DNA of 6,249 nt from Escherichia coli. Its GTDB lineage: Bacteria; Pseudomonadota; Gammaproteobacteria; Enterobacterales; Enterobacteriaceae. Positions 1,571 to 6,249 of the stretch are shown in pieces (within the stretch, counting starts at the first letter, position 1; the number at the start of each line of letters is the position of its first letter). The translations under genes and the position numbers were made by a program. The notes under the pieces were generated by a model that was not told where the DNA came from, did not search any database, and saw nothing but the letters and a program-made list of their open reading frames with translations. The stretch lies in NCBI RefSeq assembly GCF_003334785.1, contig NZ_QOWV01000039.1; one strand, written 5' to 3'.

Positions 1571-3419
1571 AGTTAACATTACAAGATATAAGTAATGGAC
1601 GCACTCCCAATTAGTCTATTTAAATCGCCACGAGTTTAACTGACAACCCATGATCAATTATGAATTGCAACTATTTCTGTAGTCACTTTTGTGGGGACAG
1701 TCCACAAAACTGCCAACTTCCGCTTCTTGCTCTTAGCGGACATTAGCATAGGCTATTTACCATAACGCCTCATTACGCGCACCGCCCAGACTGACTCAGC
1801 GCGTTTCTGGCATATCCCCGGTAAAACAAGTAACAAACCACCCGAAAATGAACACCAGAAACGCGACTTAAGAATCTACCCTATGAATGGATATGCACTC
1901 AACCGAATCGATCTTGGTTTCAATCTTTTTTATCGGGATCAGGCTTCTTTTTAGGTAACTTCGGGGGCTTAACTTGCTGATGACTTTGCGTTCGGCGCGT
2001 AAGCCAGGGATGGTCAGCTTTAGGTTTAACATAGTATTTTGAGCGTAAATCAATACGGGCATTATCCACTCGTTCATGGACACTCTTTTCATCATCCAGT
2101 GGTATAGGCTCCGGGCCATCAACATACTTTTCCCAGCCCAGCGCTTTCCCGTCATACAGAACGTTAATTTCACCGTCAAAGTTCTCGCATACAGTAACAA
2201 CCGAATGCCTAAGTCGATATCCCCGGCCCTCACTGCGTACCTGAAACGCACTGCTTTTGTACTGGAAAGTGAGATTTTTAGACAGAACGCGCTTCGCCTG
2301 TAGGCTGAAGATATAACCCAGTTCCTCTTCAGAATGGTGCACATCAAGATGAGCATTATCAGTAGTACGAGGCGACGTAGCGAACCGGTTGTTATAGGCT
2401 TCAATAAAGGTCGGCAACCATGCATTTGCTGTTTCAATATCACTGATATTCTGAAGCCGCATTTCTTTGACCAGCCTGTCCTGTAGTGTCTGATTGGCGC
2501 GCTCTACCCGCCCTTTTGCCTGCGGGCTGTTGGCATGGATTGGCTCGATGCCCAGTGTCTTTATCGCACGAGTGAACTGGGTCAGCTCACCTTCCCGCTC
2601 TGGGTTATTTACCCTGAATATACTGTGTCTATCAGAGTAGAGAGCGAGCGGTACGCCATGATCATTAAGGTAACCCCGGAGGGTTTCCATGTAAGCCCGG
2701 GTTGTTTCAGCAGGCACAAAACGCAACGCCATCAACGCACTGGTGGCATCATCAATGAAAACGATCAGTGTACATCTGGGGCCTCGATTTTCAAACCAGT
2801 CATGAGGTGAGCCATCAATCTGGATCAGTTCACCGTAAGATGGTCGTCGCATGCGGCGTTGATATATACGGGCAATTTTACGACGGCGTTCACGCCATAA
2901 CCCCTCTTCTATCATCCACTTTCTGAGAGTTTCAACGGATAAAGATAAACCGTGTATCTCGCGCAATTTTTCGCACGCAAACGTAGGTCCAAAATCAGCG
3001 TAACGGCCTTTGAGGAGTGAAATTACTGTTGCTCTGAATTCAGTAGAAAAGGAATTATTAGGACGCTTTCCACGTCGGTGGGAAACCAGACCAGAAGGCC
3101 CTTCATTTCTATACCGTTGCACCAGACGTTTAACCTGCCGAATAGAAATGCCAATGCGTGCCGCAGCTTGTTCCTGAATAATCTGAAGTCGGTGGAGTTC
3201 CTTATGACTCATCGTAACAGTCTCTTTGATCATGAAAAATCCCCCAGAGAATTGTCTGGGGACATTTTAGAATGGTTCAAAGGGGACATTACAGCTTGGT
3301 GTTAACAATAGCCTGCTTCTCCGTGCCTTTCGGCACGTAAGAGGCTAACCTACATGTGTCTAGCATGAAATTGGCCTCAGATTAATGTTAAGCGTCTTGC
3401 AGGACGCGTAATGTTAACT
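1571..3419 (-). mobile_element. ISNCY-family (IS1202-group-like) insertion sequence; boundaries tentative
   Basis: Boundaries are placed at a perfect 12-bp inverted repeat (AGTTAACATTAC at 1571-1582; GTAATGTTAACT at 3408-3419) bracketing the transposase gene. No target-site duplication was found and a 12-mer match could arise by chance in 6 kb. Confidence 0.35.
1920..3233 (-). CDS. ISNCY-family DDE transposase (IS481/IS1202-like), 437 aa
   Basis: N-terminal helix-turn-helix (AARIGISIRQVKRLVQRY); integrase-type catalytic core with D in IQIDGS, D in FIDDATS and E in SPQAKGRVERANQTL; lysine/proline-rich C-terminal tail. An alternative ATG at 3212 (MSHKEL...) is in frame. Confidence 0.9.
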   Translation of the reverse strand: MIKETVTMSHKELHRLQIIQEQAAARIGISIRQVKRLVQRYRNEGPSGLVSHRRGKRPNNSFSTEFRATVISLLKGRYADFGPTFACEKLREIHGLSLSVETLRKWMIEEGLWRERRRKIARIYQRRMRRPSYGELIQIDGSPHDWFENRGPRCTLIVFIDDATSALMALRFVPAETTRAYMETLRGYLNDHGVPLALYSDRHSIFRVNNPEREGELTQFTRAIKTLGIEPIHANSPQAKGRVERANQTLQDRLVKEMRLQNISDIETANAWLPTFIEAYNNRFATSPRTTDNAHLDVHHSEEELGYIFSLQAKRVLSKNLTFQYKSSAFQVRSEGRGYRLRHSVVTVCENFDGEINVLYDGKALGWEKYVDGPEPIPLDDEKSVHERVDNARIDLRSKYYVKPKADHPWLTRRTQSHQQVKPPKLPKKKPDPDKKD

Positions 3420-3567
3420 GGGGCTTTTCTCTATCTGCCGTTGGTGTCCATGCCCGAGGCAGATAGCCTCAAGCACCCGCAGTCATTCTACTTAACTAAG
3501 ATTTCCCCGCAAACCGTTTTTGTCCAGCACAGTAAATATCCAACTAAACCAATGGAGTTCGCTGTAT

Positions 3568-3747
3568 TTACCGCCAGTATTCAATGCACATGACCGCCAT
3601 GAACACCCCTAAAAAAAGGGCATTTATATATCCAAATATTAATATCAAAACATCAACTTTTTCCATATACCTTGCTGTGAAGATGATGGGCATACATGAT
3701 GCGAACAACCAGAACGCAACAAACAAAAACTGCAATGCGTTTTTCAT
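3568..3747 (-). CDS. Small hydrophobic membrane protein, 59 aa, two predicted transmembrane helices
   Basis: Consensus AGGAGG Shine-Dalgarno 5 nt upstream of the ATG at 3747; translation MKNALQFLFVAFWLFASCMPIIFTARYMEKVDVLILIFGYINALFLGVFMAVMCIEYWR. The ORF-track version (start 3786) has no ribosome-binding site. Confidence 0.45.
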   Translation of the reverse strand: MKNALQFLFVAFWLFASCMPIIFTARYMEKVDVLILIFGYINALFLGVFMAVMCIEYWR

Positions 3748-4001
3748 TATTCCTCCTACAATCAATGTGCAATTACATTTAAACACACCTCAATTTGGCC
3801 GGACATATAAATATCTAAACCAGAAAAAATCACTTACATAGCGTTACAAACTCTTTAGTCTAAAGGTTCATCGTAAAACATTCCCCATACTTATCAGTCC
3901 GTTCCGCGCCAGGTAGCTCATTGCCTTATCTGGCAACCTGTAATCAGGTTTCCGCTTTTTCAGTTGGCTGGTCGTTTAACCGACATAGTTAATCCATTAA
4001 T

Positions 4002-4289
4002 CTAGTTGCCGGATGTTGGTGGATTTTCGCGTTTTAGTTGTTCATAAAAGTGCACAGCTTTAACCAGTTCTTCTGATGTAACTGGGACTGGTGAGGCAGT
4101 GAATAAGGCCTGAATTTGATAGTTCGGCCTGTCGTTACAATCCTCTTTTTTCGGTACATATTTCCAGTCACCAGACCACTACTTCCCCTGAAAGTCCGTA
4201 ACGCCTTTTTTCACGTAGCGATATCGCCATGCCACTGGTTTTGCTTGCCCCGCCGTTTCATGCCCTTCCTGATAATTAATCTCGCTCAT
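4002..4289 (-). pseudogene. Small prophage-like ORF (about 95 codons) interrupted by an in-frame amber codon at 4179-4181
   Basis: Reads MSEINYQEGHETAGQAKPVAWRYRYVKKGVTDFQGK-TAG-WSGDWKYVPKKEDCNDRPNYQIQ...; its ATG overlaps the TGA of the upstream ORF (ATGA). Confidence 0.25.
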
Positions 4290-4477
4290 TCATCGCCCCA
4301 CTCATCACAATATGCTTCGACCGGAGTTTTTCCCGCTTCATAGTCATCACGCTAGGATTCGACATCAGCAGCACTTCCACCGCGTAACTCACCATAGTCC
4401 ATTAATAGTTCATCCCGCTCTTCAAAACTGATGTTATATTTAGCTGAACAAAAATCAGCCACTTTGTTCTTCCTCAT
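4286..4477 (-). pseudogene. Small acidic ORF (about 63 codons) interrupted by an in-frame amber codon at 4352-4354
   Basis: Reads MRKNKVADFCSAKYNISFEERDELLMDYGELRGGSAADVES-TAG-RDDYEAGKTPVEAYCDEWGDE; an internal GTG at codon 6 is preceded by GAGGAAG; stop overlaps the next start. Confidence 0.2.
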
Positions 4478-4899
4478 CGTCTTTTATTTCGTGGTATGAG
4501 TAATTGCAGTAGTTAAAGAAAATTTCTTATGCTCCGTCATGAATTTCCTCAGGTGTTGCGTCATCGTCCACTTCGAATACATCCTCAAAATCTCCACCAG
4601 CTATTCCCGTTTCAATAATAATTTTGAACTTTCGCATTTCACTACCGCCCTTTCGGGCGGCCTCCTGATGTTCTGAGGGTGCAGAAATCCATCCGGTTAA
4701 GGATTAAATTTTATTTACAGAACTGAATTTAATTATTCAGATATACGTATCTGTAGCCTTACGAATCTACTCACTGGATGCCTCTTTCATAAAAATAATC
4801 CAGTGGGTTTTATCGTTTTTTCCCTGTTCGTTGACAGATAACAGGTTTTCTGTCTGTCAGTGCCAGAATCTGGCTTACCGGTATTTGCGTTTCATTCCA

Positions 4900-5256
4900 T
4901 TAAAAAATCAGAACGCCGTGCGGCCTCAACACCCGAAAGGCTTCTTTAAATCTCTGTCGCGAATCATCACGCCAGGCATCTTTATTCAGCCGTCCATATT
5001 TCTTTCCCATCCAGGCGTTATCACCAACACTCTCAAGATGCGGAGGGTCTAATACAACCATCGAAAAAGATGCGTCTGCAAATGATAATGCACGAAAATC
5101 TGCGATAATGTCAGGGCTGATAATCAAGCGTCTCCCATTGCGTAATGTGTATCCTTCTTTTCTGATATCGCTGAATATCGCCCGTTCGTCAGACTTATCG
5201 AACCAGAACATGCGGCTGCCACAGCACATATCAAGAATGGTTGCCGGTGCACTCAC
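4900..5256 (-). CDS. Putative SAM-dependent methyltransferase (motif I ILDMCCGS; motif IV VVLDPPH), 118 aa; probably cut short by a premature TAA
   Basis: GTG start overlapping the stop of the upstream ORF; motif I and a DPPH motif about 55 residues apart, as in small N6-adenine/N4-cytosine-type methyltransferases; after the TAA at 4900-4902 the same frame stays open 29 codons (WNETQIPVSQILALTDRKPVICQRTGKKR). Confidence 0.6.
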   Translation of the reverse strand: MSAPATILDMCCGSRMFWFDKSDERAIFSDIRKEGYTLRNGRRLIISPDIIADFRALSFADASFSMVVLDPPHLESVGDNAWMGKKYGRLNKDAWRDDSRQRFKEAFRVLRPHGVLIF

Positions 5257-5519: not shown

Positions 5520-5892
5520 TGGGTGGGTTAAGCATAAATGTATTCCTGGTGCTAAATGGCCCGAAATTCAGGCAGAGATGCGCATCTGGAAAAAACGTCG
5601 CGAAGGTGAACGCAAGGAAACCGGAAAATACACGTCTGTTGTTGATCTCGCCCGCGCCAGAGCCAATCAACAGTACACTGAAAATTCAACAGGAAAAATC
5701 AGCCCGGTCATTGCTGCCATTCATCGCGAATACAAGCAGACATGGAAAACACTGGATGACGAACTGGCCTACGCTCTCTGGCCTAGTGATGTGGATGCCG
5801 GAAACATTGACGGCAGCATCCATCGCTGGGCAAAAAAAGAAGTTATCGACAACGACCGCGAAGACTGGAAGCGTGAGGTGTACTGGCAATAG
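5443..5892 (+). CDS. Hypothetical protein of unknown function (149 aa from TTG 5443; alternative starts TTG 5509 with a GGAG site, or ATG 5578)
   Basis: Long open frame with mixed charged composition (…KISPVIAAIHREYKQTWKTLDDELAYALWPSDVDAGNIDGSIHRWAKKEVIDNDREDWKREVYWQ); the 3' end abuts or lies within the IS3-family terminus. Confidence 0.45.
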   Translation: MRAFCQSLRACSEGNNPYPELKLHAIGWVKHKCIPGAKWPEIQAEMRIWKKRREGERKETGKYTSVVDLARARANQQYTENSTGKISPVIAAIHREYKQTWKTLDDELAYALWPSDVDAGNIDGSIHRWAKKEVIDNDREDWKREVYWQ

Positions 5893-6249
5893 CGGACACT
5901 ACCATTTGTTCTTTTTTTAAGCAGCCATCTGATGATATTTTTCCCTGAAGGCTGCCGGGGAGATATTCCCCAGACGAGAGTGACGACGCTGACGATTGTA
6001 GAAAATCTCAATGTATTCCCGTATTACTGAGATGGCTTCATCCCGGTTATTAAAACGATAGTGGCTCAGGCTCTCATTTTTCAGCGTTCCCCAGAAGCTT
6101 TCCATCGGAGCGTTGTCGTAACAGTTACCTTTACGCGACATTGATGTTTTCAGACCAAACTGCTCCTGTATGACCCGGTAATCGTATGCGCAGTACTGTG
6201 AACCTCGATCGGAGTGGTGGATTAGCACGGCAGGTGGGCGCTGGCTCCT
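5874..6249 (-). mobile_element. IS3-family insertion sequence, partial (continues beyond window); terminus near 5874-5900
   Basis: Transposase OrfB C-terminus ends at 5917; the adjacent GGCAATAGCGGACAC (5885-5899) resembles the IS3 terminal repeat as recalled (GCAATAGTGGACAC). Exact terminal base uncertain by about 10 bp. Confidence 0.6.
5917..6249 (-). CDS. IS3-family transposase OrfB (integrase core), C-terminal part; 5' end lies outside the window
   Basis: Translation ...VLIHHSDRGSQYCAYDYR...MSRKGNCYDNAPMESFWGTLKNE...YNRQRRHSRLGNISPAAF carries the IS3-family DDE-region signatures (HSDRGSQY; KGNCYDNAPMESF); the frame stays open to the window edge. Confidence 0.9.
   Translation of the reverse strand, partial: RSQRPPAVLIHHSDRGSQYCAYDYRVIQEQFGLKTSMSRKGNCYDNAPMESFWGTLKNESLSHYRFNNRDEAISVIREYIEIFYNRQRRHSRLGNISPAAFREKYHQMAA

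Follow-up and report, generated by a model that had tools for sequence, protein, structure and literature searches.

The hok/sok locus is a classic type I toxin-antitoxin system. GhoT/OrtT, a type V toxin encoded by E. coli, has 57 residues and two transmembrane (TM) helices. Class II holins and pinholins have two TM domains in about 65-75 residues, and the unimolecular spanins, for example T1 gp11, combine an N-terminal lipobox with a C-terminal TM domain. Cor, Llp, Bor and Rz1 are small phage lipoproteins acting at the envelope, of which Cor and Llp are superinfection-exclusion factors. Small membrane proteins like these are routinely missed in annotation. The available excerpt of a recent survey preprint on Hok describes hok as enriched in prophages; the genes that this excerpt names at the locus are hok, mok and Sok, with no further protein gene.

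Here we describe ORF59, an open reading frame (ORF) of 59 codons that is strictly syntenic with hok/sok and that is widespread yet absent from protein family libraries. It was found in a stretch of 6,249 nucleotides of Escherichia coli DNA (contig NZ_QOWV01000039.1 of assembly GCF_003334785.1), which was analysed as a whole and is called the window below. We consider it rather probable, taking the statement as a whole, that ORF59, which travels with hok/sok, encodes an accessory phage protein that is non-essential and acts at the envelope. The gene and its cassette are the well supported part of this statement; the function, as an envelope accessory or exclusion protein, is the part that we infer from the sequence and its context. 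ORF59 is a cheap and well-defined candidate for tests of exclusion, toxicity or Hok modulation.

The Window and the ORF59 Reading Frame

The source of the window is a defective, lambda-like prophage of the Qin-type lambdoid group in E. coli. The window is identical (100%) in many genomes and in the deposited phage PhiR42_1, and K-12 MG1655 is without the segment, so that ydfW abuts ydfX there. From its left end, the window holds relE/relB (50-618), ydfV and flxA (1151-1483). An ISNCY-family element follows on the minus strand (at least 1920-3307), covering its transposase ORF (437 codons, 1920-3233, minus strand) and reaching to the end of phage homology at 3308/3307. Terminal inverted repeats of the element were sought and none could be made out. 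Farther to the right lie a phage methyltransferase gene (4900-5256, minus strand) and, at the right end of the window, a fragment of IS600. The lysis genes essD/ydfR/rrrQ/rzpQ are several kilobases away from ORF59, beyond ydfT(Q).

Several entries in the public databases deserve a comment. The K-12 'gene' ydfW, annotated with 49 residues, is the C-terminal end of the ISNCY transposase frame (window 1920-2069, minus strand). The transposase itself is flagged as a partial pseudogene by PGAP, yet its frame is open throughout in the window. Two 4.83-Mb assemblies labelled 'DH5alpha' (NZ_CP026085.1 and NZ_CM135829.1) carry the segment at 100% identity, unlike MG1655. Both are ~0.2 Mb larger than MG1655 (4.64 Mb); either the label or the assumed structure of the K-12 Qin prophage may need correction.

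The initial annotation had placed a 59-residue ORF within 3568-3790, and it is present there on the minus strand (3568-3747), with its ATG at 3747-3745, its stop codon at 3570-3568 and the product MKNALQFLFVAFWLFASCMPIIFTARYMEKVDVLILIFGYINALFLGVFMAVMCIEYWR. The AGGAGG motif that had been reported 5 nt before the ATG was also found (3752-3757, minus strand), albeit with a spacer of 4 nt (AATA). It had further been described as the only strong translation signal in its stretch. Indeed, AGGAGG-N3-9-ATG occurs once in the 6.2-kb window, where 0.23 occurrences are expected, but 45 of 200 shuffled sequences contained at least one match, so the ribosome-binding site alone proves nothing. The Shine-Dalgarno sequence is moreover polymorphic, reading AGGGGG in 6 of 21 haplotypes, and the paralogue described below has a weaker one (AGGGA). 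We also considered a 72-residue form extended to a GTG codon (from 3786) and rejected it. The paralogue has an in-frame TAA 15 nt upstream of its ATG, and the 59-residue form is therefore the conserved product.

Upstream of ORF59, the region 3868-4637 (minus strand) holds three early-operon genes that are pseudogenes in the window and intact in phage relatives, where their stop and start codons overlap. In the window, the phrog_660 homologue (171 residues in relatives) carries an in-frame TAG and a 90-nt deletion, the phrog_519 homologue (58 residues in relatives) is truncated, and the DUF7167 gene (phrog_1997) contains an internal stop; PGAP likewise flags the genes upstream of ORF59 as pseudogenes. 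The description of ORF59 as set between an insertion sequence (IS) and decayed ORFs was hence accurate, with the ISNCY ORF on one side and these three pseudogenes on the other. An AT-rich spacer of ~120 nt (3748-3867, minus strand) separates the stop codon of the phrog_660 pseudogene (3868-3870) from the ATG of ORF59. The ORF59 segment is AT-rich as well, with a GC content of about 35-37% and T at 53% of the second codon positions. Just past the stop codon of the phrog_660 pseudogene lies the palindrome CTTTAGaCTAAAG (3853-3865, minus strand), which might, as a tentative suggestion from two lineages, bind a protein or form a small hairpin.

A consensus scan returned neither a promoter nor a terminator around ORF59, from the upstream genes to the ORF, and no terminator between ORF59 and the hok promoter. 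No unusually stable RNA fold was detected in the 5' region of ORF59 (z = -1.3 to +0.3 against shuffled sequences). With this arrangement, ORF59 would most simply be expressed by read-through of the delayed-early operon. The intergenic stretch downstream of ORF59 (3479-3567, minus strand) bears the putative hok promoter, with a -35 element TTTGCG (3513-3508), a 17-nt spacer, a -10 element TAGAAT (3490-3485) and +1 at 3478. This promoter was read off the sequence, with the beginning of the Rfam model as the reference point, and is absent from the output of the consensus scan.

ORF59 and Its Paralogue

An exhaustive phmmer search revealed a second lineage, lineage B, with a 59-residue paralogue that aligns to ORF59 (lineage A) free of gaps, shares its start and stop and is identical at 24 of 59 positions (41%). 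HMPREF0358_2809 from E. coli 83972 is one example. Between the two lineages, pS was 0.70 and pN 0.35, giving a dN/dS of about 0.24 (Fisher p = 2e-4). The identities by codon position were 0.58/0.69/0.47, and the order 2 > 1 > 3 was obtained in the ORF59 frame only. When the 74 substitutions were re-dealt in a neutral simulation, the ORF was kept in 0.26% of 20,000 trials, and none of the surviving ORFs attained the observed identity or the observed hydropathy correlation of 0.71. On the basis of the dN/dS, the frame-only codon pattern and these simulations, we conclude that ORF59 is very probably a true protein-coding gene, now or long in the past. Purifying selection on the frame was thereby detected across diverged homologues, in one deep comparison of two lineages that both come from E. 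coli/Shigella. A reciprocal tblastn search with the paralogue in 2.3 Gb of phage DNA returned only three lineage-A phages (E = 3e-11).

An antisense ORF of 83-85 residues over ORF59 was considered as the coding strand and rejected, as it gains two stops in the paralogue. Three deposited phage genomes, including ON470619.1, annotate such an opposite-strand ORF over ORF59 (5907-6158, minus strand), which is named 'hornerin' in two of them; judged by the sequences, these calls look like mis-annotations. At the site aligned with the palindrome upstream of ORF59, the paralogue reads TTCAGtCTGAA, with both half-sites changed symmetrically.

Within the databases searched, ORF59 is confined to prophage DNA of E. 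coli/Shigella. The 241-bp ORF59 segment is present in 1568 of 5426 complete E. coli genomes (29%) and lineage B in 1045 of the 5426 (a further 19%), including ST131, CFT073 and 83972. A word-indexed protein search returned only relatives at least 74% identical, from E. coli/Shigella, and no third lineage emerged when 5.8 billion proteins were searched with a profile. Scanning the DNA of one genome per species gave a single match, a contig of a 'Collinsella' metagenome-assembled genome at 100% identity, and no other species. This 5.5-kb contig (JAIJJM010000167.1, 'MAG: Collinsella sp.'), which encodes ORF59 at 100% identity, is by its sequence almost certainly mis-binned E. coli prophage DNA. 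RefSeq PGAP left ORF59 uncalled in 60 of 60 evenly sampled records and in two fetched regions, and the paralogue is uncalled too.

The initial annotation had treated the protein as an orphan, and our sequence, profile and structure searches agree with it in finding no described family. ORF59 had no match in PHROGs at E <= 1, in NCBIfam, or in Pfam even at E <= 10, and consequently none to Hok/Gef (PF01848), to GhoT/OrtT (PF10753) or to the Imm/SieB/Cor-type families of Pfam. PADLOC gave no family at E <= 1, a two-lineage profile found no match among PDB sequences, Foldseek against BFVD yielded only generic hairpins (E > 1), and literature searches by either peptide string returned nothing. ORF59 is an uncharacterised family of small phage-encoded membrane or lipoproteins outside the described families.

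The lineage B site is an unannotated relic of ~1.2-1.4 kb reaching from an integrase fragment beside ttcA (the Rac attachment locus) to uspF, as in the ST131 chromosome (8001-8501 of the region examined). In this relic, no Met-started ORF of 40 or more codons survives apart from the paralogue. Starting 54 nt downstream of the paralogue is the C-terminal half of a hok coding sequence, at 74% identity. A decaying endosymbiont genome (GCA_013422975.1, QIBI01000051.1) was considered as a host of the paralogue and rejected as an indel-ridden assembly of the E. coli locus. The assembly contains dozens of single-base indels relative to two other copies of the locus, one of them from ST131, and ompN, dbpA and zntB are fragmented in it, an instance of low quality mimicking decay.

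The Cassette with hok/sok

ORF59 had been thought to stand alone, with no obvious partner gene. Neither view could be upheld, since a hok/sok leader lies between ORF59 and the IS and a complete hok follows in intact relatives; hok is merely split in the window. The leader was recognised by the Rfam model RF01794 (sok) with 104.1 bits and an E-value of 1.5e-23 at 3478-3307, on the same strand as ORF59, and begins 90 nt past the ORF59 stop codon. Together with an alignment against phage vB_EcoS-640R1, whose hok is intact, the match delimits a hok leader at 3308-3478 (minus strand) that stops short of the G of the hok ATG. The order DUF7167 (phrog_1997), phrog_519, phrog_660, spacer, ORF59 and hok leader was invariant in 84 loci. 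Of the 84, 50 have an intact hok after the leader and 31 have the IS there, and deposited phages share this arrangement. The neighbouring hok matched phrog_251 at 2.8e-33. ORF59, which comes behind the replication genes and a further three small genes, is part of an invariant cassette in the dicC/cro-driven rightward early operon of Qin-type lambdoid prophages and not a stand-alone gene.

The window also reveals how the hok locus was split. It is collinear with vB_EcoS-640R1 up to the end of GGAGAAGCAGGCTAT (3308), where the phage continues with the G of the hok ATG and the rest of a HokD-type toxin gene, and the window has IS-side sequence instead. The junction 3308/3307 thus splits the hok ATG and forms the ISNCY side of a block of ~3.3 kb comprising the IS, flxA, ydfV and relBE. 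Behind relE, just left of the window (5773-5928 in the fetched region), lies hokD, whose homology to the phage hok begins only at GGAGAAGCAGGCTATG. The collinearity to 3308 and the homology of hokD from GGAGAAGCAGGCTATG indicate, at the level of sequence, that one ancestral hok/sok locus is split. The window retains the leader/mok/sok half, and the coding half with the 3' end corresponds to hokD/relF, ~3.3 kb away. The 15-nt repeat GGAGAAGCAGGCTAT is present at both junctions. The split locus appears to preserve the very rearrangement by which K-12 hokD was parted from its regulatory half, and the window displays this loss by hokD/relF in one piece. It agrees with a 'major rearrangement' of hokD that Pedersen and Gerdes reportedly described in 1999.

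Architecture and Possible Roles of the ORF59 Product

The AF2 model of ORF59 contains helices at residues 2-24 and 31-58 (pLDDT 72.5), and the hydropathy peaks agree with it. The earlier description as two hydrophobic helices is thus reproduced, but it now has a rival for helix 1. An N-terminus with a charge of +1 or +2, a loop that is either neutral or acidic and an E-x-W-R tail predict an N-in/C-in topology. The lipoprotein rule PROSITE PS51257, which asks for K/R within the first 7 residues and a Cys at position 15-35, is satisfied at Cys18 in both paralogues and by only 1.6-1.8% of composition-preserving shuffles. S17-C18 is invariant, and the classical V-I-S-C occurs in lineage B. What looks like helix 1 may thus be the signal peptide of a lipoprotein, in which case the mature form would be a 42-residue lipid-anchored single-pass protein of the inner membrane. 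The residues S17-C18-x-P20-I-I-x-T24, F38-G39-x-x-N42-A-L-x-x-G47-V-F and E56-x-W58-R59 are invariant between the paralogues. Such invariant small and polar residues suggest a specific helix packing or partner binding, not a generic greasy peptide.

In the reading we favour, ORF59 would most likely be synthesised with the delayed-early genes upon induction or infection, and its product would enter the inner membrane with the positively charged N-terminus inside. Either the N-in/C-in helical hairpin would stay as such, or cleavage and lipid modification at Cys18 would leave the single-pass protein, which would expose a few residues to the periplasm and keep its E-x-W-R tail in the cytoplasm. 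Its role would probably be at the envelope, in exclusion and defence or in membrane modulation, like that of the neighbouring hok/sok.

Recent variation bears on a different reading, which we regard as unlikely: ORF59 might be a relic, a past phage gene that now drifts neutrally without function and owes its intactness to the recent spread of the cassette and to the small target of 180 nt. All six variable sites in lineage A are non-synonymous (A16V, M28I, V31I, I37M, Y40H and L44I), and so are the two changes in lineage B (V6M and R33I). Such a ratio of 8 non-synonymous to 0 synonymous recent changes, at very low diversity, fits neutrality (P = 0.17) and is improbable at an omega of 0.24 (P = 0.003). 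The lineage B ORF changes at the rate of its flanks (2 in 180 nt vs 31 in 2044 nt). In lineage A, by contrast, the density of variable sites is 3-4 times lower in the ORF (5/180 nt) than in the flanks (34/321 nt), and all six changes are conservative or equal to the paralogue residue, which argues against mere drift.

ORF59 is intact in 156 of 156 full-length copies, comprising six DNA haplotypes. Between phages, however, the non-coding spacer and the hok leader vary hardly more than ORF59 does, whereas the upstream genes are ~8% diverged. This mosaic boundary points to a recent spread of the cassette rather than to demonstrated selection on ORF59. The broken upstream genes of the window stem from a lineage ~8% diverged from the intact phages. 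The initial annotation had proposed that ORF59 is kept under selection while its neighbours decay; the intact ORF beside broken genes is confirmed, but the near-equal invariance of spacer and leader and the wholly non-synonymous changes leave the selection unsupported. The partner hok is, furthermore, destroyed in both lineages of chromosomal relics, and the entire segment is gone from MG1655, a loss not known to have had any effect. On the other hand, the paralogue has remained the sole Met-started ORF of 40 or more codons in the Rac-site relic of 1045 genomes, and a slippage-prone T7-A-G4 tract (3608-3619, minus strand; ORF59 codons 43-47) was of wild-type length, free of frameshifts, in 76 of 76 viral contigs (IMG/VR). 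In the reading we favour, too, ORF59 appears to be under relaxed constraint in present-day cryptic prophages.

Database proteins frameshifted at this homopolymer tract do exist, as variants of 55 and of 83-84 residues, mostly from raw-read assemblies. We considered a frameshift hot-spot, by phase variation or decay, as the common state and rejected it; the 76 wild-type tracts imply that the frameshifted raw-read entries are rare or errors.

As the initial annotation suggested, ORF59 could also be a stand-alone toxin of the type I, type V or holin-like kind that depolarises or permeabilises the inner membrane when made, which we regard as distinctly unlikely. The product is small, very hydrophobic and two-helical like GhoT or the class II holins, the Shine-Dalgarno sequence is strong, and the gene lies in a phage region next to the membrane toxin gene hok. 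Nevertheless, none of the Hok/Gef, GhoT/OrtT, holin or other models of Pfam, PHROGs and PADLOC matched it, the leader is unstructured, the antisense frame is not conserved, no antitoxin-like gene is adjacent and the lysis cassette is kilobases away. We specifically rejected a type I-like leader or antisense RNA for ORF59, as the only Rfam match is the downstream one at 3478-3307, with none on ORF59, and the folds are unstable. It would, in addition, be difficult for 29% of genomes to maintain an intact, unrepressed toxin gene with a consensus Shine-Dalgarno sequence.

All 84 lineage-A loci have hok strictly adjacent to ORF59, which raises the possibility, very unlikely in our estimation, that ORF59 is a third component of the locus. 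It would be a membrane or lipoprotein factor gating, enhancing or neutralising Hok, or else read-through from the early operon would alter the 5' end and folding of the hok mRNA and its activation. A hok remnant lies beside lineage B as well, so that the synteny has outlasted the near-saturation of synonymous sites in mosaic phages, and no terminator separates ORF59 from the hok promoter. If true, some hok/sok loci would consist of three components, and ORF59 would be the first protein found to modulate a type I toxin-antitoxin system. However, ~1450 further genomes match the hok-leader part of the query alone, which means that hok loci commonly lack ORF59 and that hok does not need it. ORF59 is also intact where hok is split or half-deleted, the synteny of only two lineages could be explained by common descent, and the excerpt of the survey preprint lists hok, mok and Sok only.

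Finally, it is barely credible that ORF59 is a chance ORF, an AT-rich and T-rich spacer open for 59 codons with a hydrophobicity arising from T at second positions, because the base composition, the silence of PGAP in the 60 sampled records, the insignificance of the Shine-Dalgarno pattern alone and the opposite-strand calls in two phages, which fit such an origin, are outweighed by the low dN/dS, the absence of indels, the shared start and stop, the rare neutral survival with no survivor at the observed identity, and the two stops that the opposite-strand ORF gains in the paralogue.

An envelope-acting accessory protein encoded beside hok/sok, the reading we prefer, can be set against the described systems. 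GhoT/OrtT resembles ORF59 in size and in the predicted helical hairpin, a likeness of architecture only and not diagnostic. Unlike GhoT/OrtT, ORF59 matches no profile of that family, has a prophage early-operon context and bears a conserved lipobox, and its neighbours are the phrog_660, phrog_519 and phrog_1997 genes and hok, with no GhoS-type antitoxin gene adjacent. The class II holins are small two-TM membrane proteins of phages, as ORF59 may be. Unlike them, ORF59 is located in the early (nin-like) region, with no adjacent endolysin gene, no Pfam or PHROG match and no conserved dual-start motif. The layout of the unimolecular spanins, a lipobox followed by a C-terminal TM domain, is formally matched by ORF59. 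In contrast to the spanins, its mature part would have 42 residues, with ~12 residues from Cys18 to the TM segment, far too short for the periplasm, and the gene is in the early region.

The closest neighbours in the genome are the Hok/Gef proteins (PF01848, phrog_251), which are also small, hydrophobic inner-membrane proteins of lambdoid prophages and are encoded in the same cassette and orientation as ORF59. Their sequences are unrelated to that of ORF59. Hok/Gef proteins consist of one TM segment and a periplasmic tail containing Cys, whereas ORF59 has two hydrophobic segments, or a putative signal peptide and one TM segment. An overlapping mok-like frame, a Sok-like antisense RNA and a folded leader, as in hok, are all missing from ORF59. 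Cor, Llp, Bor and Rz1 differ from ORF59 in sequence, and the lipidation of ORF59 is putative; its mature form would keep a full TM helix and would thus reside in the inner membrane, not the outer. ORF59 nonetheless resembles these lipoproteins in the K/R, the hydrophobic core and the [A/I]-S-C motif ending at residue 18, and in being phage-encoded and non-essential.
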